A stretch of 64,000 nucleotides of DNA, from contig DAOUOW010000001.1 in assembly GCA_030626475.1 (NCBI GenBank), positions 108-64,107 of the forward strand, in the 5' to 3' direction. The notes below the pieces were generated by a model. It was not told the DNA's origin. It was given only the letters and a program-made list of their open reading frames with translations, and did not search any database. The translations under genes were made by a program, and so were the position numbers. Every line of letters begins with the position of its first letter. Within the stretch, counting starts at the first letter, position 1. Source of the DNA: Chloroflexota bacterium (GTDB taxonomy: Bacteria; Chloroflexota; Dehalococcoidia; E44-bin15). Shown here piece by piece: positions 3,382 to 55,942 of this stretch.

Positions 3382-4848
3382 GTGATGGCGATGCCGCGTT
3401 GGCAGGGAACATTAAAGAAAATAGATGATTATCGCTGGGAGATCCCTCAAAGCTACAAGGCGGGTATGAGCGTGCCCGGGCTTATTTATGCCGACGAGGC
3501 CATGCTAGAGCATATTCGGGAGGACCAGACCCCAGAGCAGGTGGCCAACGTTGCTTGCCTCCCCGGGATCGTCGCCAAGTCCCTGGCTATGCCCGATATC
3601 CACTGGGGCTACGGTTTCCCCATAGGGGGGGTTGCTGCTACCAGGGTTGAGGATGGCGTGATCTCTCCTGGAGGGGTGGGCTATGACATTAACTGTGGGG
3701 TGCGCCTCCTCCGCACTAATCTGATGAAGGAGAAGGTCAGCCCCAAGATTGAGGAGCTGGTATCCGAGCTTTATCGAGCTATCCCTTCAGGGGTGGGCTC
3801 TCAGGGAAGATTGAGGTTGGGCCAGAAGGAAATAGACAAGGTTCTGGTCATGGGCGCCAGATGGGCGGTGGAGCAGGGATATGGGGAGGCGAGGGATTTG
3901 GAGGTCACTGAGGCCAACGGGAGTATGCCTGGTGGTGATCCCCAGTGTGTGAGCACTAAAGCGAAGCAGCGAGGCGGTCCCCAGCTAGGGACCTTGGGCG
4001 CGGGGAACCATTTTCTGGAGGTTGAGGTAGTGGAGGAGATCTACGAGCCTGCTATCGCTGCGGTCATGGGGATTGAAAAGGTGGGGCAGGTGCTGCTCCT
4101 GATTCACACCGGCTCGCGAGGCTTTGGTCATCAGGTTTGCACCGACCATTTAGTGACTATGGGAGCGGCGGTGCAGAGATATGGCATCCACCTACCCGAC
4201 CGCCAGCTTGCTTGTGCCCCGGTGAAATCCCCGGAGGGCAAGGACTACTTTGCCGCTATGGTCTGCGCTGCCAACTATGCCTGGGCCAATCGCCAGTGCA
4301 TCACCCACTGGGCACGGGAATGCTTCGTTAAGGTCTTTGGCCAGAGCCAGCGTGAACTGGGCCTGGAGATGGTATATGATGTGGCGCACAATATCGCCAA
4401 GATGGAGGAGCACGAGGTAGATGGGAAGAGGGTTTCCCTCTGCATCCATCGCAAGGGGGCAACCAGGGCCTTCCCCACGGGACATCCGGAGGTTCCCGCT
4501 ATCTATGCCGAGATTGGGCAGCCAGTGCTCATCCCTGGCGATATGGGTCGCTACTCCTACGTCCTGGTAGGCACACAGAGGGCGATGGAGGAAACCTTTG
4601 GTTCCACCTGTCATGGGGCAGGCAGGTTGCAGAGTCGCACGGCAGCCAAGCGAAGCCAGCGCGGGGTTGATGTTGCCCGAAGGCTCGCTCAGAGGGGAAT
4701 TACAGTCAAGACAGGAAGCATGGCGTCCCTCGCTGAGGAGGCATCAGAGGCATATAAGGATGTCACTGCAGTGGTGGAGGTAACCCACAGGGCAGGGATC
4801 TCACGTAAGGTGGCCAAAGCAAGACCCCTAGGGGTAGTCAAGGGCTAG
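3382..4848 (+). CDS. rtcB: RNA-splicing ligase RtcB
   Basis: HWGYGFPIGGVAA and GYDINCGVR metal-site motifs with a C-terminal HGAGR region. 488 aa, directly downstream of archease. Confidence 0.9.
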   Translation: MMAMPRWQGTLKKIDDYRWEIPQSYKAGMSVPGLIYADEAMLEHIREDQTPEQVANVACLPGIVAKSLAMPDIHWGYGFPIGGVAATRVEDGVISPGGVGYDINCGVRLLRTNLMKEKVSPKIEELVSELYRAIPSGVGSQGRLRLGQKEIDKVLVMGARWAVEQGYGEARDLEVTEANGSMPGGDPQCVSTKAKQRGGPQLGTLGAGNHFLEVEVVEEIYEPAIAAVMGIEKVGQVLLLIHTGSRGFGHQVCTDHLVTMGAAVQRYGIHLPDRQLACAPVKSPEGKDYFAAMVCAANYAWANRQCITHWARECFVKVFGQSQRELGLEMVYDVAHNIAKMEEHEVDGKRVSLCIHRKGATRAFPTGHPEVPAIYAEIGQPVLIPGDMGRYSYVLVGTQRAMEETFGSTCHGAGRLQSRTAAKRSQRGVDVARRLAQRGITVKTGSMASLAEEASEAYKDVTAVVEVTHRAGISRKVAKARPLGVVKG

Positions 4849-27700: not shown

Positions 27701-28921
27701 GTGAGGATATGCCTCTTATGCAATAGAGGTAACATGTACTGCGGAGGGCAGGGAGTTTACCTCTATTATTTGTCCCGCGAGTTGCAGCGGCTGGGTCATG
27801 AGGTCGATGTGGTTGTCGGCCCCCCTTATCCTGATATTGCCCCCGGGGTAGAGGAACATAGAGTTGAAAACTTGAACTTCTTTGAGAATCGATTCCCCAA
27901 AAAGACACCGTTCAGGGTCTTCACCCCCCTTAACCTCTACGAGCTGGCAGTGACCCGGGTGGGGATGTTCCCCGAGATGTTCGCCTTCAGCATGAGAGCC
28001 TACGAGAAGGTGCGCCAACTCCTTTGCCAACGTCGATTCGACATCATCCACGACAATCAGACCCTGGGCTATGGGATACTGCTGATGAAGGCGTTCAAGA
28101 TTCCCATCGTCGCCACGGTGCACCATCCCCTGCCTATCGATAGGAAGACCGACCTTGCCTATCTGGAGAGTGTAAAGGATAGATTGTGGCGCATAATGTT
28201 CTACCCGTTCCTGATGCAGCATGTGGTGACGAAGAGGATGGATCGGGTGATCACTGTCTCGGCGAGTGCCGCCGAGGAAACAAAGAATGTATTTAAGGTG
28301 CCCACCCAAAAGATGAGGGTGATTTACAATGGCATTGATACCACCATCTTCAGGAAACTGGATGGCGAGGGCAAGCAGCACGGGCACCTCATTATGGTGG
28401 GCAATACCCAGGACCGCAAGAAGGGGCTCGTCTATCTGCTTGAGGCCCTCCGCTTGCTCCAGAGGAAGAATGATGTCAAATTGACCATTGTCGATCGGGG
28501 ACTGCCCGATAATGAGTATGCCCCCCAATTGGTGAACAGATATAGCCTTGATGGGAGGGTCAATTTTACCGGCAAAGTAGGCCTGGAGGAACTGGTTAAG
28601 CATTATGCCCGGGCGGAGGTGGCAGTGGTTCCCTCCCTCTATGAGGGCTTTGGTCTCCCCGCTGCCGAGGCCATGGCCTGCGGCCTGCCCGTGATCGCTA
28701 CCAGTGCCGGGGCATTGCCTGAGGTAGTGGAGGATGGCAAAAGCGGCATCCTGGTGCCGCCCCAGGATGCTCATGCCTTAGCTAAGGCGATTGAGCAACT
28801 GCTCAGTGACGAGCAGTTGCGGCGGGTGATGGGGGAGGAGGGGAGGAAAAGAGTGCAAACGCATTTTACCTGGGAGCAGGCAGCGAAGAAAACGCTTGAG
28901 GTATACCAGGAGGTCTTGTAA
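27701..28921 (+). CDS. Glycosyltransferase family 4 (GT-B, group 1), paralog A
   Basis: C-terminal GT1 motif (EGFGLPAAEAMACGLPVIAT) and an N-terminal CGGQGVY region. Confidence 0.75.
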   Translation: MRICLLCNRGNMYCGGQGVYLYYLSRELQRLGHEVDVVVGPPYPDIAPGVEEHRVENLNFFENRFPKKTPFRVFTPLNLYELAVTRVGMFPEMFAFSMRAYEKVRQLLCQRRFDIIHDNQTLGYGILLMKAFKIPIVATVHHPLPIDRKTDLAYLESVKDRLWRIMFYPFLMQHVVTKRMDRVITVSASAAEETKNVFKVPTQKMRVIYNGIDTTIFRKLDGEGKQHGHLIMVGNTQDRKKGLVYLLEALRLLQRKNDVKLTIVDRGLPDNEYAPQLVNRYSLDGRVNFTGKVGLEELVKHYARAEVAVVPSLYEGFGLPAAEAMACGLPVIATSAGALPEVVEDGKSGILVPPQDAHALAKAIEQLLSDEQLRRVMGEEGRKRVQTHFTWEQAAKKTLEVYQEVL

Positions 28922-29642: not shown

Positions 29643-30899
29643 ATGTTGAAAATATGCCTTCTTTGCTATCGGGGAAACAAGTACTGCGGCGGTCAGGGGA
29701 TTTATCTCTATTACCTCTCCCGTGAATTGCAGCGCATGGGGCATGAGGTGGATGTAATAGTGGGACCTCCGTACCCCGATATTGCCGAGGGCATCAGGAT
29801 GCACAGGTTGGAAAGCCTGAACCTCTACGATCGGCTAATTGAAGGGAAGAAGGGTTTTCTCCCCCAGGACAACCCGCTGCATATTCTCACTCCCCTCAAC
29901 CTCTTCGAACTCGGGGCGACCTCCCTAGGTATGTTCCCGGAGATATTTACCTTCAGCATCAGAGCCTATCTCAGGATTCGCCAGCTTCTTCCCCATCATC
30001 GCTTCGATATTGTCCATGATAACCAGTGCCTGGCCTATGGTTTACTCCAGATAAGAGCCTCGGGGCTGCCTGTGGTGGCCACCATCCATCATCCACTGCC
30101 TATCGATACTAAGGCTGACCTGGCTCAGACATCAAGTATCCGAAAGAAGATCAGGCGCACCCTTTTCTATCCCCCGTTTATGCAGGGCATCGTCGCCAGA
30201 AGGCTGGATGGAGTGATTACCGATTCTGAGAGTTCGGCGCAGGAGATAAGGAGGATATTCAAGGTGCCCCCGGGCAAAATGAGAACCGTTTATCTCGGCG
30301 TGGATACCAACGTCTTCCGCAAACTGGACGGGCATAACAAGGAGTCCAATAGCCTGATAATGGTAGGCAGAACCGAGGATCGAAAGAAGGGCATCATCTA
30401 CTTGCTTCAGGCCCTCAGACTGCTCAAGGGGGATGACCTCCGTCCCAAAGTGACCATTGTCGATCAGGTGAACTCAGGAAGCCTGGCCCTGGATTTGGTC
30501 AGTAAGTATGCACTACAGGATATGGTTAGCTTTACCGGGAGGTTAACCACAGAGGAGTTGGTGAGCCACTATTCAGCAGCGGAGGTTGCTATAACCCCCT
30601 CTGTTTATGAGGGTTTTGGGCTTCCTGTTGCCGAGGCTATGGCCTGCGAGGTCCCTGTGATCGCTACCCGTGCCGGGGCTCTTCCCGAAGTGGTGGGAGA
30701 AGGGGAGACCGGGATTTTGGTGCCTCCCCAGGACCCCCATGCCCTGGCCAGCGCTATCAAGCGCCTCCTTGCGGATGAATCTATGCGCCGCAGGATGGGC
30801 AGTGAGGGCAGAAGACGGGTACAAAAGCACTTCTCATGGCCAGAGGCGGCAAGTAAAATGCTTCAGGTATATGAGGAGGTTTTATCTCAGCGTCGCTAG
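29643..30899 (+). CDS. Glycosyltransferase family 4, paralog B
   Basis: N-terminus nearly identical in pattern to paralog A (MLKICLLCYRGNKYCGGQGIYLYYLSRELQRMGHEVDV). EGFGLPVAEAMACEVPVIAT motif. Confidence 0.75.
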   Translation: MLKICLLCYRGNKYCGGQGIYLYYLSRELQRMGHEVDVIVGPPYPDIAEGIRMHRLESLNLYDRLIEGKKGFLPQDNPLHILTPLNLFELGATSLGMFPEIFTFSIRAYLRIRQLLPHHRFDIVHDNQCLAYGLLQIRASGLPVVATIHHPLPIDTKADLAQTSSIRKKIRRTLFYPPFMQGIVARRLDGVITDSESSAQEIRRIFKVPPGKMRTVYLGVDTNVFRKLDGHNKESNSLIMVGRTEDRKKGIIYLLQALRLLKGDDLRPKVTIVDQVNSGSLALDLVSKYALQDMVSFTGRLTTEELVSHYSAAEVAITPSVYEGFGLPVAEAMACEVPVIATRAGALPEVVGEGETGILVPPQDPHALASAIKRLLADESMRRRMGSEGRRRVQKHFSWPEAASKMLQVYEEVLSQRR

Positions 30900-50913: not shown

Positions 50914-52143
50914 CTACTGCTCTGCCTTGCTTTCCTGAATCAGACTCTCTCCATATTCCAGGAGCACCTTGCCATCCAGGCGCGTCTTCTTCGAATCCAG
51001 ATAGACCTTGAGCGCCTCCAATGGTGTCATCGCCTCGGCAGACCAGCCTGCCATCCGCGTACGGCGTTCTCGCTCCACTCCCCTGGCGATGGCGGCGATG
51101 AAGTGAGCATCTTTGAGCGCCTTGCGGACCTCCCCCTCCTGCAGCATCCCCTCCAGCCGCTCCGGGATTTTCACCTGAAGGCGCACTACGGCGTCCTTGA
51201 TCTCTCGCTCGCGGCGTTCGATGGCGCGCAGCACTGCCTGGGTGGGGTCTTGCTCCTCGGGGCTGACATCAACCTTGATGGTGAGAAACGGGCGCGCCTT
51301 CACCGCGTGGAAGTCGAAGGACACTTCCCCTTTTCGCTCTATCTCCACCAAGAAGAACCCCTTATCATCCTCCTCCTCGCTGAAGTCGATGCATTGCAGG
51401 CTGCCGGGGTAGACCACCGGCGGATTGTCGGAGAGGACCTGCTTCCTGTGGATGTGTCCCAAAGCAACGTAGTCAAAGGCGGGGTTGGCAACAACGCTGT
51501 GGAGCAGCACGTAGTCGTGGCCCATTATCATGCTCCGCTCCGAACCATACCTGGCATTGGACAGGGAAACATGGGCGGCAAGGATGGCGGGCAAGTTTGA
51601 GTCCAGCGTCTCGACCTCCACCCTGAGGCGCTCGGTCAGTATCTGCTCCAGCCTGTCATTGATCTCATCGAGGGTGAGATTCTTTGTCTCCTCCCTGGAG
51701 AGCAGGGCGCTTCTCCTCGCCCAGGGCAGGGCCACGATCTGGATAACCCCACCCTTTGTTTCCGCGCGGTAAGTCCCGGCGGTATTGGCCACGATAACAT
51801 TTTCAATCTCCAGCGTGCGGAAAATCTCCATCGTTGTGGCGCGGCCGAAGGCACTGGGGAGGTCGTGGTTGCCGATGAGAAGGAAGACGGGGATGCCGCC
51901 CGATGCCAGCCTCCAGATGCGGCGGGCAAACTCTCGCTGGTGGGTCTGGGAGGGCTCGCGGCTCTTGTAAGCATCGCCGCAGAAGAGCACCAGGTCAACA
52001 TCCTGGCTCAGGGCGTATTCCACCACCTCATCGAAGGTGGAGAGGAAGTCGTGGAAGCGCCACGAGAGCCCGGTCTCGGTGTTGACGCCCCCGCTGTAGT
52101 TCTCCACCCCGAGGTGCAGGTCGGCGAAATGAAGGATTCTCAT
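50914..52143 (-). CDS. sbcD: DNA repair exonuclease SbcD / Mre11 family
   Basis: MRILHFADLHLG calcineurin-like phosphoesterase N-terminus, with GDAYKS and GNHD motifs. 409 aa. Confidence 0.8.
   Translation of the reverse strand: MRILHFADLHLGVENYSGGVNTETGLSWRFHDFLSTFDEVVEYALSQDVDLVLFCGDAYKSREPSQTHQREFARRIWRLASGGIPVFLLIGNHDLPSAFGRATTMEIFRTLEIENVIVANTAGTYRAETKGGVIQIVALPWARRSALLSREETKNLTLDEINDRLEQILTERLRVEVETLDSNLPAILAAHVSLSNARYGSERSMIMGHDYVLLHSVVANPAFDYVALGHIHRKQVLSDNPPVVYPGSLQCIDFSEEEDDKGFFLVEIERKGEVSFDFHAVKARPFLTIKVDVSPEEQDPTQAVLRAIERREREIKDAVVRLQVKIPERLEGMLQEGEVRKALKDAHFIAAIARGVERERRTRMAGWSAEAMTPLEALKVYLDSKKTRLDGKVLLEYGESLIQESKAEQ
52093..52143. repeat. 51-bp perfect direct repeat, copy 1 (the native sbcD start region)
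   Basis: gctgtagttctccaccccgaggtgcaggtcggcgaaatgaaggattctcat is identical to 52667..52717. Confidence 0.8.
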
Positions 52144-52173
52144 TGTCTCAAGCGAAGAGAGGCATTATAGGAA

Positions 52174-52406
52174 TTACGTTCGACCGATAGATTGCAAAAA
52201 CTCTTCCTCGGCAATCTCAAGCTGTCTTAGGATGTCGGAGAGCAAGTAACGGCTGATAGTCTTAGCAGGGTGAATGGGAATCGGGGCGCGGCGACAGTCC
52301 CGATGATGAAATATTGCTGACCACCCTTTTGTCGCACCCTCTCGAACCCCAGCGCCTGAAGTCCCCTGATAACTTCTCGAGTTTTAAGTGAGGGTGGCTT
52401 TGTCAT
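52174..52406 (-). pseudogene. hicA: hicA-like toxin gene, apparently frameshifted
   Basis: The ATG overlaps the hicB stop in an ATGA arrangement. The N-terminal half (MTKPPSLKTREVIRGLQALGFERVRQKG) is in one frame. The HicA-like C-terminal half (FHHRDCRRAPIPIHPAKTISRYLLSDILRQLEIAEEEFL) lies in the adjacent frame, switching near an AAAAGGG run. Confidence 0.5.
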
Positions 52407-52615
52407 ACCGCAATAGTAACCTGTCTGGTACCAACTTCCTGCGGGATTTCCTCGCCGCGGTCTTTGCGGTATTCAAGGCAAAGCTCGAGCGCCTCTTTAA
52501 TATTAGCCAGGCATTCTTCATAGGTCTTGCCCTGGGCGTGGGCTTCCGGAATAAGAGGGCAGCTAGCTATATAGAATCCGTCGGGTGCCTTCCTGATGAT
52601 GACAGTGTATTCCAT
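52403..52615 (-). CDS. hicB: HicB-family antitoxin (UPF0150)
   Basis: MEYTVIIRKAPDGFYIASCPLIPEAHAQGKTYEECLANIKEALELCLEY is a HicB N-domain. The six-frame ORF continues upstream in-frame to 52717, where it borrows the duplicated first 17 codons of sbcD. Confidence 0.65.
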   Translation of the reverse strand: MEYTVIIRKAPDGFYIASCPLIPEAHAQGKTYEECLANIKEALELCLEYRKDRGEEIPQEVGTRQVTIAV

Positions 52616-52666
52616 ACCCACCTCTACAGCGTATATTATAGCACAGTTGCGGTGAAGGTGCCCAGA

Positions 52667-52717
52667 GCTGTAGTTCTCCACCCCGAGGTGCAGGTCGGCG
52701 AAATGAAGGATTCTCAT
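52667..52717. repeat. 51-bp perfect direct repeat, copy 2 (duplicated sbcD 5' end fused to hicB)
   Basis: Identical to 52093..52143, and includes the sbcD ATG plus 16 codons. Confidence 0.8.
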
Positions 52718-52721
52718 GCGG

Positions 52722-53108
52722 TCAATCCAAAAGCCTCTTCTCGCCCTCTATGGTCTTGATGTCCGTTATATCCTGGGTGACCTCAAGGCAACCGATGTAG
52801 CTCCCCGACTTGTCCCTGACGGGGAAGTAGCGTATCAATATCATCCGCCCCTTGAGGTTGATCCAGAACTGGGCAACATCCCTTTTCCCTGCCTTAAAAT
52901 CGTCAAGTATTTGCTGTACCTTATGCACGCTTTTCTGGGGATGGCAGTTCTGGACCTTCATGCCGATGACCGAAGGGGTCCTCCTGAAGATGCGCGCCTC
53001 TCCCTTGCTGTAGTACATTACAATGTCGTCCTTATCGACAAAGGAGCATTCAATCGGCAGCGCATCGAAGATGTTGGCGATGGTCTCAGTTGACAGTTTG
53101 TCCAGCAT
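52722..53108 (-). CDS. PAS-domain protein (stand-alone)
   Basis: 128 aa with a PAS-like core (FVDKDDIVMYYS...NCHP...LEVTQDIT). Confidence 0.55.
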   Translation of the reverse strand: MLDKLSTETIANIFDALPIECSFVDKDDIVMYYSKGEARIFRRTPSVIGMKVQNCHPQKSVHKVQQILDDFKAGKRDVAQFWINLKGRMILIRYFPVRDKSGSYIGCLEVTQDITDIKTIEGEKRLLD

Positions 53109-53400
53109 GGTCCTCCTCCTTTGGTGATTGAGCCGCCAGCCGCTTCGAGACCTCGGCCTGGCTCAGCCCGCTGACGCCGATGACCTTCCTCCTGCTGGCA
53201 GCGCCCTTCTCCAGCGTTATGCTGCCCCTGCTCACCTTCAGAAGCTGGCTCAGGAACTCGATAAGCTCCCTGTTTGCCCTGCCCTTCACCGGCGGCGCTG
53301 CGATTTTGACCTTCAGCACGCCATCCTCAAACCCCAGCACCTCATTGCACCTGGCGTTGGGCTGGACCTGGACGGTGATATTAGTCTCCTTCAGCCTCAA
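53086..53400 (-). CDS. DUF167 (YggU/UPF0235) family protein
   Basis: ITVQVQPNARCNEV...GVLKVKIAAPPVKGRANRELIEFL...ITLEKGAASRRKVIGV matches the DUF167 pattern. Confidence 0.65.
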   Translation of the reverse strand: MRLKETNITVQVQPNARCNEVLGFEDGVLKVKIAAPPVKGRANRELIEFLSQLLKVSRGSITLEKGAASRRKVIGVSGLSQAEVSKRLAAQSPKEEDHAGQTVN

Positions 53401-53447
53401 ATCCTATGATACCCCCTTGAGCGGAGGCCTGCCGAATGAGAAAGTTG

Positions 53448-54545
53448 TCACAGAATTCTTCCAAACCGAAACAGAGTGCCCACGGTCATGACTTTATTCT
53501 GCAACTCAACAGACTTACCTGTGAGCACATCCTCGAAAATGTATCTATCAATGTTGTTTTCACCAATTAGGTCTGTACCCACCCGCCTAAGTTCAACTAT
53601 TATAAATAGTGCCCTTCGCACAATATCTTCCAGTTGAAGCACGTTAGAGATAAACCACTGCCTAGCTTCGTTCCTAGTCCTTCTTGCACCATGTACCAAG
53701 TTACTTCGGTGCCCGTACGCCTCCTTGATGAAACCGACAGTTTTGTACAGATTTGCGCTACCAAATTCCAATATACAGCTTGTCCTATATGCCAACTTGA
53801 AACGAATACTTTCTGGACCTTGGCTAAATAAAGACTCGAGGCAGGTGATAAGGTTCAGACCCCTCTCAATAGCATCAGCCTTGTAAAATGAGTCTCGGAA
53901 TATCTCCATGGGAACCTGATAAGGAGCTAAATCCGCAGTAGATACTTCATCTGCCAACCTAGTCAGAAAATCGCAGTCCTGCTCTGTAAGTTTAACTATA
54001 ACGCTCTCCCCATAAGGCTCAGGCATTGGCTGATCAAGCCCGCTCCGGGATACCGCATTTCTATCGCCCCCTTGAAGTTTAGCAGGGAGCATTATGATTC
54101 TCGCTTTCGTGCCAAGCCGCAGTGGTAGGATGGCTCTTTCGAGTTCATCTCTTGCTTGACCACGGAAGACGCTCAGTGCAGCAGCGCCAGTAGCAACTAC
54201 CGATCCCGACCCAGATACAGCAACTCCCCCGGTATCTCCTTCGAGTGCACCACTCAGGCTATCCACTTCAATGTCAACAAGGTATTTGACAACATCTCTA
54301 TCAATTTGTCGCTGTCCTCCAACATCTTTGTACAAAGTAATATTCGCACCCGGGCTATGCCCAAAATCCTCCCCCGCGACGATCGGATTTTTGAAAACCC
54401 TGCCATCCCCCAAATACAGCTCATTAATGGCGGGAGGCAATTCTATTCCGAAGAGAGTTCCTATCAATGTCAGCCTCACCAAACCGCTCCCCTCTACGTT
54501 ATTCCAATAACAGCCCCGGGCCAGATTCAACGTCTCTCCACTCAC
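53448..54545 (-). CDS. Hypothetical protein with low GC, translationally coupled to glyQS
   Basis: 365 aa with no recognisable motif. The start overlaps the glyQS stop in an ATGA arrangement. GC is lower than in the neighbouring genes. Confidence 0.45.
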
Positions 54546-55942
54546 CCCTCAAATCCAAGCCAGTAGCTGCCGCCGGGGGGGAGGACTTCCAGGGGCTCGC
54601 CGGCAAGCTTGGCTGCCAGGCTGTTCCTTAGCTCGGCTACCGGCACCCTTATCTGCTTCATGCTGTCGCGGTCGCGGATGGTTACCTGGTTGTCTTCCAG
54701 CGATTGAAAGTCTATGGTGACGCACAAGGGGGTGCCGATCTCGTCCTGCCTGCGGTAGCGCCTGCCAATGCTCTGGGCATCATCGTACTGGGTCATGAAG
54801 CGCTGGCGCAGGTCGGCGTAGACTTCACTGGCCATGGGGAGCAGCGCCTCGTTGCGGCTCAAGGGGAGGATGGCAACCTTCACCGGCGCCAGGTCGGGAT
54901 GGAGGCGGAGGAGGACCCTGATCTCATCCTTGTCCGGCTCCTCATCGTAGGCATCGACGAGGAAGGCGAGGGCAGAGCGGTCCACTCCCGCCGAGGGCTC
55001 GATGACATAGGGGATGTAGCGCTCCTCGCTGTCGGGGTCAAAGTAGCTGAGGTCGCGGCCGCTGGATTGCCAGTGCTGGGTGAGGTCGAAATCGCCCCTG
55101 TTGGCGATGCCCTCCAGCTCCGCCCACCCCATGGGGAAAAGGTAATCGATATCGTAGCAATCGCGGGCATAGTGGGCTAGCTCATCCTTGGCATGCTGGC
55201 GGAGGCGGAGGTTCTCCTTGCTGATGCCCAGCTTGACATACCAGTTCAAGCGCTCCTCAAGCCAGTATTTGAGCCACTCCTCATCAGTTCCCGGCTTGAC
55301 AAAGAACTCCACCTCCATCATCTCAAACTCGCGGCTTCTGAAGATGAAGTTGCCGGCGGTGATCTCGTTCCTGAAGGCTTTGCCGATCTGGGCGATGCCG
55401 AAGGGCAGCTTCTTCCTCGCCGTATCCAGTATATTGGCGAAGTTGACGAATATGCCCTGCGCCGTCTCCGGGCGCAGATAGACCACCTGCGCCTCCTCCT
55501 CAACGGCGCCGAAGAAGGTCTTGAACATCAGGTTGAACATGCGCGGCTCGGTGAGCTCGCCGCCACAGTCGGGGCATTTGCCATCCTTGGCTTCGTCGGC
55601 GCGCCACCGCTGATGGCAGGCCTTGCATTCCACCAATGGGTCCTTAAACCCCTCCACGTGCCCGCTGGCAACCCATGTCCTGGGGTGCATCATGATGCTG
55701 GAGTCCAGACCCACCATGTCATCCCTTTCCTGAACCATAGAGCGCCACCAGGCGTCCTTAATATTACGCTTTAGCTCGATTCCCAGCGGTCCATAGTCCC
55801 AGCAAGCGGAGAGCCCGCCATAAATCTCGCTGGAAGGGAAGATAAAGCCCCGCCGCTTGCAAAGTGAGACCAGCTTCTCCATATCAACCTTGCTTGTCAC
55901 TCCATGCTCCTGAGGTAAGGTTTTTGCAGATGGGCTTAGCAA
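54542..55942 (-). CDS. glyQS: Glycine--tRNA ligase, dimeric (archaeal/eukaryotic-type GlyRS)
   Basis: Class II aaRS motifs and [25 protein letters not shown]. 466 aa. Confidence 0.85.

Follow-up and report, generated by a model that had tools for sequence, protein, structure and literature searches.

Genes and repeats at the sbcD locus

The window, by which we mean the whole 64 kb stretch of metagenome-derived DNA analysed here, carries an sbcD gene (50914-52143, minus strand) encoding 409 amino acids, with a Pfam Metallophos match and a score of 143.3 bits against TIGR00619 "exonuclease subunit SbcD", which passes the cut-off of 77.65. It is the conserved anchor gene of the locus, all genes of which lie on the minus strand. 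No sbcC partner adjoins it, the downstream gene being of the NMO family and in opposite orientation, and the window's 10 largest ORFs include no SMC/SbcC-like protein.

The ATG and following 16 codons of sbcD (GCTGTAGTTCTCCACCCCGAGGTGCAGGTCGGCGAAATGAAGGATTCTCAT) occur twice, at 52093-52143 and 52667-52717, with 51/51 positions identical and a start-to-start spacing of 574 bp. At up to three mismatches, the window contained only these two matches to the 51-mer, where 0 are expected from 100 shuffles, and the pair was its sole long perfect direct repeat. The preliminary description of a perfect 51-bp direct repeat at the start of sbcD was accurate in these respects. In the 16 bases adjoining the repeat upstream of both ATGs, 10/16 positions also match. 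Copy 1 (52093-52143, minus strand) is the true 5' end of sbcD, with its ATG at 52143, and matches the sbcD start of L030/L031 at 50/51 positions. Copy 2 (52667-52717, minus strand) is a partial sbcD 5' copy located 4 nt past the stop codon of a PAS_10 gene, which is where sbcD itself starts in relatives with an empty site.

Upstream of copy 2 lie this PAS_10-domain gene (52722-53108, minus strand; Pfam PAS_10, 104 bits) and a DUF167 (YggU-like) gene (53086-53400, minus strand; Pfam and NCBIfam matches), both of which occur as modules in relatives. In L009 a 46-nt sbcD copy precedes the former, and many relatives have a 38-nt copy before the latter; the window's own DUF167 junction type is shared with L014, L069, L033, L037, L052, and L043. 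The stretch at 53403-53445 (minus strand) is probably a third sbcD 5' copy, heavily decayed and cut by the upstream ORF; it has no significance standing alone and was assigned by positional homology, as its junction GGGGGTATCATAGGATTTG is common to the clear 38-nt copies of relatives. Among the other reading frames, orf365 had no match in Pfam, NCBIfam, or PADLOC. The best-ranked literature on Dehalococcoidia, genomic islands, and toxin-antitoxin systems contained nothing on this locus.

The hicBA module and its 104-codon reading frame

The 523 bp between the repeats (52144-52666) contain hicB and a frameshifted hicA, and both ORFs and profile matches agree with the earlier reading of a HicB antitoxin followed by a HicA-like remnant. 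The native hicB coding sequence (52403-52615, minus strand) encodes 70 amino acids. It was assigned from homologues and from Pfam matches of the UPF0150/HicB_lk_antitox type that fall below threshold (PF21748, 24.4 bits with a cut-off of 27.3; PF15919, 23.1 bits with a cut-off of 27). Homologues 81-91% identical have precomputed Pfam hits and, for some, the NCBI name "HicB family antitoxin", including proteins 91% identical. A total of 588 homologues was retrieved, and in about 105 of the 120 best clusters listed the protein is exactly 70 amino acids long.

The hicA toxin pseudogene (52175-52406, minus strand) was delimited from its reading frames and by alignment to the intact 77-amino-acid hicA of L024, L025, L027, and L029, which located the loss of 1 nt between 52318 and 52317, within the His codon of the KGGH motif. 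The remaining N-terminal ORF of 59 amino acids matched only positions 2-25 of PF07927 (19.8 bits, cut-off 27), while the intact, orthologous HicA of L025 passed with 57 bits. Judged from its sequence, hicA is dead in the window. Across the clade, hicA carries independent frameshifts in two lineages and is deleted in others.

As a small, adjacent, and co-oriented hicB-hicA pair with a 4-nt overlap (ATGA, 52403-52406) and its own promoter, the module resembles type II HicAB systems. It differs from them in that the window's toxin gene is a pseudogene, without an intact HicA domain and its catalytic His, and in that the antitoxin is a short 70-amino-acid form with no recognisable DNA-binding domain. 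The hicB expression signals (52619-52664, minus strand), identified by promoter scan and conservation, comprise a -35 TGGGCA (52659-52664) starting 2 nt off the junction, a TG-extended -10 TATAAT (52635-52640), and a Shine-Dalgarno sequence GAGGTG (52619-52624). The promoter scored 10/12 plus the TG, and TGCTATAAT together with GGAGGTG was unchanged in 7/7 aligned cassettes, some of them from unrelated contexts. The hicA stop is separated from the sbcD ATG by a 31-nt spacer (52144-52174, minus strand) that is part of the module, being 100% identical in L074 and similar in L038; it contains a TATAAT at 52164-52169 and no terminator-like site.

The hicB frame is open as far as the ATG at 52717, which yields a 104-amino-acid ORF labelled hypothetical protein in the public record. 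Its 34-codon N-terminal extension (52616-52717, minus strand) consists of 17 sbcD codons and 17 leader codons, so that, at the level of the ORF, the upstream repeat copy is indeed joined in frame to hicB. This fusion is found in the window lineage only and depends on a 1-nt difference in the leader. We regard it as highly improbable that the captured cassette gave rise to a chimeric 104-amino-acid HicB, made from the sbcD start signals, that matters to the cell. The frame is open, and the ATG at 52717, 4 nt past the PAS_10 stop, stands in a context identical to that serving sbcD in L030/L031, so that the long form could plausibly be translated to some extent from operon transcripts. However, the cassette has a conserved promoter and ribosome-binding site of its own, HicB homologues are 70 amino acids long, and the corresponding mini-ORF is not in the hicB frame in either L074 or L024, has no ATG in L049, and contains an indel in L038. 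Given this independent promoter and ribosome-binding site, the length of the homologues, and the out-of-frame mini-ORF in L074 and L024, the suggestion that the insertion hijacked the expression signals of sbcD is unlikely to be the point. The 104-amino-acid "chimeric HicB" is probably a lineage-specific reading-frame accident and no meaningful gene fusion, and the cassette would, if anything, give sbcD a promoter.

Occupied and empty sites in close relatives

Two assemblies, L001 (JGI) and L002 (ENA), were 100% identical to the window. L074, obtained from another run, is laid out in the same way, with two 51-mers that differ from each other by 3 mismatches and an sbcD gene 8% diverged from that of the window. 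In L030/L031, the closest relatives, with flanks 96% identical at the nucleotide level, PAS_10 is followed directly by sbcD and exactly 574 bp are absent; L075-78 likewise have PAS_10 directly before sbcD and lack the 574 bp. Comparison with orthologous sbcD loci, which had been proposed as a check, thereby revealed a precise empty site and confirmed an insertion or deletion with a clean footprint. It also answered the doubt that the repeat might be a collapsed or chimeric assembly product. While the repeat is perfect and the window is of metagenome origin, the JGI and ENA contigs are identical, L074 shows this architecture with two copies that are not identical, and over 10 diverged loci have the junction in common. 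The repeat length of 51 bp also falls below the largest k that metagenome assemblers commonly use. An artefact is very unlikely, to a degree that allowed us to exclude it.

Between the window and L074, 2/60 four-fold degenerate sites (3%) differed in the module, a small count from 60 sites, against 72/395 (18%) in the flanks (Fisher p = 0.002), which suggests that the module was exchanged recently. Moreover, the two 51-mers of the window had 0 differences, while about 3.1 would be expected of a duplication older than the split from L030 (P = 0.04). Both results support the earlier view that the event is recent in this lineage, and in our best reading the lineage of the window has recently either gained the hicBA module or had it homogenised.

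The opposite polarity is also conceivable, in which PAS_10-[51]-hicBA-sbcD would be old in the clade, gene conversion would have homogenised the 51-mers, and recombination between the repeats would have removed the module from L030/31 and L075-78. The same layout in L074 and in L054, which has an sbcD of only 74.5% identity, is consistent with this order of events; deletion between perfect 51-bp repeats would yield exactly the observed empty site, and with a dead toxin the barrier to loss would be gone. However, module and flanks have not diverged together between the window and L074, as the four-fold sites indicate, and at least two independent losses would be required among close relatives. 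We therefore consider this polarity unlikely, although not negligibly so; it invokes the same machinery as the gain that we prefer, and direction alone differs.

Several more specific exchange scenarios were considered. Identity between the window and L074 was 96-99% in the module and 93-96% beside it, and no sharply bounded tract of near-identity was seen around the module. Compared to L030, the 5' end of sbcD had 1-2 mismatches per 100 nt, fewer than the gene has on average, with no donor-derived patch, and a long double crossover at sbcD was rejected because such a patch would be expected. A single reciprocal crossover with an L074-like donor, or the reverse, was incompatible with the variants at nt 5, 18, 21, 33, and 48.

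sbcD-tagged modules across a clade of Dehalococcoidia

The window's locus belongs to an array that a clade of uncultured Dehalococcoidia carries between glyS and sbcD. Using a profile of true sbcD starts, we detected extra partial sbcD starts in 13 lineages (E<1e-4) and weak ones in about 5 more; all of them were upstream of sbcD on the same strand as the gene, and 0 hits were obtained from a shuffled control. Modules with fixed junctions were of the types 38 nt plus DUF167, 46 nt plus PAS_10, and 51 nt plus hicBA. Their order varies, with hicBA followed by DUF167 in L043 and DUF167 followed by hicB in L014. The junction between sbcD nt 51 and the hicB promoter recurs, in decayed form, in at least 8 diverged Dehalococcoidia lineages, with PAS_10, DUF167, glyoxalase, or Mrr-like genes upstream, and also directly after another hicA. 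Going by this distribution, the junction is old. The event initially described as single was not, given that this junction, in which sbcD nt 51 is followed by TCTGGGCA, is common to diverged lineages and that there are at least three module types.

The flank upstream of each partial copy equals the flank of the true sbcD start in genomes without that module. At the other end, in L038, L049, and L054, sbcD itself has GGG at nt 49-51 while the upstream copy ends in xGC, and therefore the 3' end of the copy travels with the module and is not duplicated from the target. Upstream copies elsewhere are mostly decaying, with indels or a lost ATG. The HicB subfamily (at least 83% identity) was found only beside sbcD or a partial sbcD copy in all contexts examined. 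An ORF beside the L009 copy looked like a GIY-YIG protein, an identity that we dismissed as it had no match in Pfam or PADLOC.

Two conventional origins of the repeat were rejected. Simple local tandem duplication does not agree with the upstream copy, which joins PAS_10 exactly as the true sbcD start does in empty-site genomes. A transposon-type target duplication does not agree with the upstream 3' ends in L038, L049, and L054, which differ from the local sbcD; the module ends have no terminal inverted repeats, the 523 bp contain no transposase ORF, and the duplication measures 51 bp compared to the 2-15 bp expected of a transposon.

Proposed mechanism and comparison with known systems

We favour, as likely though well short of certain, an additive array whose modules are gained, lost, and shuffled by means of partial sbcD 5' copies serving as portable homology. 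The 574-bp unit would consist of the 51-nt sbcD 5' copy, hicBA from promoter to hicA stop, and the 31-nt spacer. Each junction would have formed once, by illegitimate or homology-facilitated illegitimate joining, after which the partial sbcD copies would provide homology that moves with the modules. Any two copies, whether both in one genome or one of them on DNA from a relative, could then recombine, resulting in insertion next to sbcD (Campbell-like or short-patch), precise deletion, duplication, or reordering. In the window lineage, a recent gain or homogenisation of hicBA would have been followed by the 1-nt deletion that killed the toxin gene, leaving an orphan antitoxin with its own promoter, probably reading through into sbcD.

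Some observations run against this explanation. A single reciprocal crossover in the 51-mer should leave donor variants in one copy; given that both copies in the window equal the inferred native sequence, a conspecific donor or later gene conversion must be added. Three independent junctions, all at sbcD nt 38-51, are not obviously explained by either homologous or illegitimate recombination. The modules are tight, running from promoter or ribosome-binding site to stop, and recall dedicated cassette systems.

Arrays of orphan modules have been described for the immunity genes of the Vibrio cholerae T6SS and for orphan Rhs/CDI tips, where they are attributed to sequential displacement by homologous and homology-facilitated illegitimate recombination (PMC5361080). 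Similarly, the sbcD array has sequential additions beside a conserved gene with a trail of its fragments, and co-oriented fragments of one gene stand between heterologous modules in an order that varies by strain. In contrast to orphan arrays, the fragments here are 5' ends upstream instead of 3' ends downstream, are very short (38-51 nt), and accompany unrelated single genes (DUF167, PAS_10, hicBA) instead of effector-immunity pairs. In Dehalococcoides, tandem genomic islands at ssrA span kilobases, use the 3' end of an RNA gene and a 20-bp repeat, and mostly carry a serine-recombinase integration module, although some units have no integration genes (PMC3146451). They share with our locus the class of organism, a single-copy conserved gene, and direct repeats of the gene end between units, whereas the units here are 0.3-0.6 kb and no recombinase was seen at any locus examined.

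The pdif modules of Acinetobacter are Xer-dependent, located on plasmids, and bounded by 28-bp XerC/D sites with dyad symmetry and alternating orientation (PMC6449649, PMC13141974). They too are small and recombinase-less, often encode toxin-antitoxin pairs, are bounded by a repeated short site, and are shuffled between replicons; the site here is coding sequence without symmetry, always direct, at one chromosomal locus. Neither inspection nor a dyad-symmetry test of the 51-mer found two inverted 11-bp arms around an AT-rich spacer. Integron cassettes are likewise tight single-gene units beside a fixed point with the newest nearest, but here an attC hairpin is absent, and neither IntI nor attI was seen around at least 10 arrays. 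Chromosomal integron arrays often include toxin-antitoxin cassettes that bring their own promoters.

These resemblances raise the question of whether the sbcD 5' copies serve as attachment sites, with the initial ~38-51 nt of the gene being the site of an integron-like or dif-module-like system whose recombinase is encoded elsewhere in the genome. Single-gene modules running from promoter to stop, recombinase-less and site-tagged, would then be captured, excised, and reshuffled in trans. Consistent with this, no more than 51 nt are reused by three module types, the modules are tight and variable in order, one was exchanged between lineages, and recombinase-less modules are a known paradigm (PMC6449649, PMC13141974), with cis-mobilisable islands described in Dehalococcoides (PMC3146451). 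However, the called genes of at least 10 arrays examined and the window's 10 largest ORFs included no integrase or recombinase family. Neither a hairpin nor dyad symmetry was detected in the 51-mer (z -0.26, +0.81), and by inspection it has no dif-like AT-rich core. The homology ends differ (38, 46, and 51 nt), and the upstream copies decay freely. An attC-like repeat structure was rejected, as the 51-mer did not fold better than shuffles on either strand. We find such a system, in all its parts, distinctly unlikely; if it exists, a dedicated recombinase acting at this site would define a new kind of cassette system.

Under the additive array that we prefer, short copies of a highly conserved gene start would serve as reusable landing pads, maintaining a small flexible gene stack at a fixed chromosomal point of a streamlined uncultured bacterium without visible mobile-element machinery. 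The locus also corrects a database annotation, the 104-amino-acid "hypothetical protein" probably being HicB with an accidental extension, and offers a dated example of a toxin-antitoxin module that seems to have been exchanged and then disarmed.

Results

The 51-mer GCTGTAGTTCTCCACCCCGAGGTGCAGGTCGGCGAAATGAAGGATTCTCAT occurs at 52093–52143 (copy 1) and 52667–52717 (copy 2) with 0 mismatches, the starts of the two copies being 574 bp apart. The 64-kb window contains no other long perfect direct repeat, and it held no further match to the 51-mer with up to three mismatches, none being expected by chance. All genes around sbcD are on the minus strand, in the transcription order glyS (54542–55942), a 365-aa low-GC ORF (53448–54545), a DUF167 gene (53086–53400), a PAS_10 gene (52722–53108), repeat copy 2, whose ATG at 52717 lies 4 nt past the PAS_10 stop, hicB and hicA between the two copies, and copy 1, the 5′ end of sbcD (50914–52143). 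The sbcD product passed the curated SbcD model TIGR00619 (143 bits, cut-off 77.65), and the preliminary description of a perfect repeat bounding an insert at the sbcD start was confirmed in its repeat (51/51), layout, and sbcD identity. The public record MBA7597964.1 names this product CpdA phosphodiesterase, though the SbcD model was passed; no sbcC adjoins the gene, the neighbor being an NMO-family gene in opposite orientation. Elsewhere, a 238-nt direct repeat of 71% identity (27921–28158 and 29887–30124, 1966 bp apart) is probably the product of paralogous genes.

We compared the window with relatives' genome and metagenome loci (L-numbers), 19 genome and 44 metagenome loci being fetched via SbcD and more via HicB and SbcD relatives. 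An assembly artefact was rejected, given that contigs of JGI sample 3300030655 and ENA assembly ERZ3612387 matched the window at 100% identity across 13.2 and 7.8 kb and, more decisively, that L074 (run SRR7042271; sbcD 91.6% identical) has the order DUF167–PAS_10–51-mer–hicB–hicA–sbcD with the same spacing. The 51-mers of L074 are not identical to each other (3 differing positions), which rules out a collapsed perfect repeat as the origin of its layout. A total of five contigs encode this SbcD together with the 104-aa ORF that results when the upstream ATG is read into hicB. The comparison with orthologous sbcD loci that had been proposed as a check found the insert present in L074 and precisely absent from other relatives: L030 and L031 match the window at 96–97% identity across PAS_10, sbcD, and the gene beyond, except that the insert and one of the repeat copies, together exactly 574 bp, are missing and sbcD starts 4 nt after PAS_10, with no mismatch cluster flanking the insertion site, and in L075–78 (sbcD ~91.5% identical) the site is likewise empty.

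Native hicB (52403–52615) encodes 70 aa, and ∼105 of the best 120 hicB homologue clusters have exactly this length and start with MEYTV. Directly upstream lies a GAGGTG ribosome-binding site, and a promoter scan placed TGGGCA-18-TG-TATAAT (10/12 consensus positions) at 52635–52664. The element TGCTATAAT and the ribosome-binding site were invariant in 7/7 aligned cassettes, two of these from unrelated genomic contexts. Given a spacing of 2 nt from the repeat junction to the predicted −35 box, the module appears trimmed from promoter to stop. The sequence context of the upstream ATG is still the one used by sbcD in empty-site genomes, which makes it possible that the 104-aa form is translated to some extent from operon transcripts. 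However, the functional emphasis initially put on a chimeric HicB read from the sbcD start signals was misplaced: hicB has its own promoter and ribosome-binding site, its homologues have 70 aa, and the fusion frame rests on a single-base leader difference, one extra T (L074, L024) putting the mini-ORF out of frame. No sign of selection on the fusion was found. The opposite effect is more likely, as sbcD now lies behind a strong-looking predicted cassette promoter and a scan detected no terminator-like site between hicA and sbcD. The module's 31-nt spacer includes a TATAAT at 52164–52169 (minus strand), which precedes the sbcD ATG by 20–25 nt. This element is unchanged in L074 and conserved in L038; no −35 element to pair with it came up in the scan, and it could yield a short-leader sbcD transcript.

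The hicA gene overlaps hicB by ATGA and is one base short of its intact 77-aa counterparts in relatives (GGTGGTCA-GCAATA versus GGTGGCCACGCAATA), the deletion falling in the His codon of KGGH (52317/52318). An intact orthologue passes PF07927, the window fragment fails, and the window's hicA is predicted to be dead. Immediately before the frameshift, the sequence A_AAG_GGT (52322–52328, minus strand) resembles a slippery site, and slippage by −1 there would restore a full-length product of 77 aa; since GWS would then replace the catalytic GGH, programmed frameshifting is less likely than a pseudogene. L074 has a different 1-nt deletion, in a G run (L074 ∼4775–4785) with the His codon intact, which indicates that the toxin was inactivated independently after exchange. 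In L012, L014, and L049, hicA is partly or wholly deleted and hicB kept, a pattern that suggests repeated toxin loss after acquisition.

The insertion polymorphism is real, recent, and clean, as first interpreted; it had been treated as a one-off event, yet its junction recurs across lineages. The hicBA junction, sbcD nt ∼51 joined to TCTGGGCA...TGCTATAAT, is found in L074, L038, L049/L079–81, L054, and L012 (hicBA reduced to a relic, then an alcohol dehydrogenase gene), as a relic in L014, 30 nt shorter in L024–27, and in L042/45/48 directly after another hicA, 4.8 kb upstream of sbcD. A second junction type joins a 38-nt sbcD copy to the DUF167 start (GGGGGT/ATCATAAGATTTG) in L014, L069, L033, L037, L052/53, L043, L032, and L035, and in L030/31, where DUF167 was later deleted; a third joins a 46-nt copy to the PAS_10 ribosome-binding site (L009). 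Searching with a profile of true sbcD starts, we detected further copies in 13 lineages (E<1e-4) and weak ones in ∼5 more, all on the sbcD strand and upstream of sbcD, with 0 matches in the shuffled control. Most upstream copies are in decay (indels or ATG loss), and each partial copy has on its upstream side the sequence that, where the module in question is absent, lies ahead of the true sbcD start. Module order varies: DUF167–PAS_10–copy–hicBA–sbcD in the window, L054, and L074, copy–hicBA–copy–DUF167–sbcD in L043, and copy–DUF167–relic–hicB–sbcD in L014. On these alignments, the hicBA junction is judged to be old and the sbcD-start site to have been used repeatedly.

In the window itself, a badly degraded sequence at ∼53403–53445 (minus strand) is probably a third sbcD 5′ copy, a relic of the second junction type; it lies immediately 5′ of DUF167 and is truncated by the preceding ORF. 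Only its position identifies it, through the junction GGGGGTATCATAGGATTTG common to clear 38-nt copies in relatives, its score not being significant alone (equaled by 100/2000 shuffles). A promoter-like TCGGCA-18-TATCAT (9/12; 53406–53435, minus strand) straddles this copy and the DUF167 junction, and in relatives with an intact 38-nt copy a TTTGCC occupies the −35 position relative to this TATCAT, a putative promoter. In L042 (1–260), L045 (1–240), and L048 (1–240), an intact-looking hicA precedes a 51-nt sbcD copy in decay and a hicB-promoter relic, followed by ∼4.5 kb of methylmalonyl-CoA-mutase-like and B12-binding genes, then DUF167 and sbcD, an arrangement suggestive of hicBA units in tandem that later took in a large block. 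Short palindrome-rich, MITE-like inserts lie within the arrays of L014 (5040–5400) and L043 (1490–1720, e.g., TCATTGCGAG...CTCGCAATGA). The 365-aa ORF (GC 43–47% versus ∼60% around it) had no match in Pfam, NCBIfam, or PADLOC and is confined to contigs of the window's strain; in relatives its position is taken by an unassigned 266-aa ORF (L031), an NYN-domain gene (L075), an Mrr-like nuclease (L079), or a TIR-like effector (L010). Between glyS and sbcD there seems to be a small, flexible island of partly defence-like character.

Four-fold sites differ by 8.7% between the window and L030, and the window's 51-mers show 0 differences against ∼3.1 expected (P=0.04) if the duplication were older than the L030 split and free of gene conversion. 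Between the window and L074, 72/395 four-fold sites differ in PAS_10, sbcD, and the next gene versus 2/60 in hicB and repaired hicA (Fisher p=0.002), and identity is 97.3% for the whole module and 91.6% for sbcD. The module being far less diverged than its flanks, its copies in the window and L074 share an ancestor much younger than that of the flanks, and on this comparison the hicBA module is an element exchanged between lineages. Transfer between the window and L074 by a single crossover was rejected, as the variant pattern fits neither direction.

Discussion

We infer that recombination via partial sbcD copies shaped the array. In L038, L049, and L054, the local sbcD has GGG at nt 49–51 but the upstream copy ends in xGC, indicating that this 3′ end was carried by the module, and the 5′ part of upstream copies tends to match the local sbcD. 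The module-borne 3′ end, the absence of dyad symmetry or hairpins from the sbcD copies, and the absence of recombinase genes from the arrays examined and from the window's 10 largest ORFs (housekeeping genes) favor such recombination over cut-and-duplicate insertion. The first ∼50 nt of sbcD encode phosphoesterase motif I, its best-conserved stretch at the nucleotide level. Each junction type would have a single origin in illegitimate joining anchored on sbcD homology, and this conserved stretch would now act as portable homology, through which modules may be inserted, precisely deleted, duplicated, and reordered.

The weak point of this homology model is that the window's two 51-mers are both native and identical, an outcome not expected from one reciprocal crossover if the donor is diverged; the model would need gene conversion or a conspecific donor in addition. 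The model also gives no explanation for the clustering of the three junctions at nt 38–51 of sbcD or for the tight trimming of the modules. On account of these three features, we leave some room for a trans-acting site-specific recombinase moving the modules, an explanation we consider improbable.

By family, the gene pair belongs to HicAB, here with an apparently dead toxin. In how it works, the sbcD array is comparable to sequential-displacement arrays at T6SS, Rhs, and CDI loci (PMC5361080), but is mirrored to the 5′ side of its anchor gene and built of unrelated single genes. The tandem ssrA islands of Dehalococcoides combine repeated target-gene ends with an integration module (PMC3146451); the sbcD array shares the former and lacks the latter. 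Its units are similar in size to pdif modules and integron cassettes and likewise have no recombinase of their own, whereas the sbcD copies lack the site features that define either system. A targeted full-text literature search returned no description of sbcD-start-tagged modules in the titles and abstracts of its top-ranked results. The sbcD array, shaped in our reading by homology, is a new variation on known additive arrays; the minority reading of a trans-acting recombinase, if true, would make it a new cassette system and would deserve more interest.
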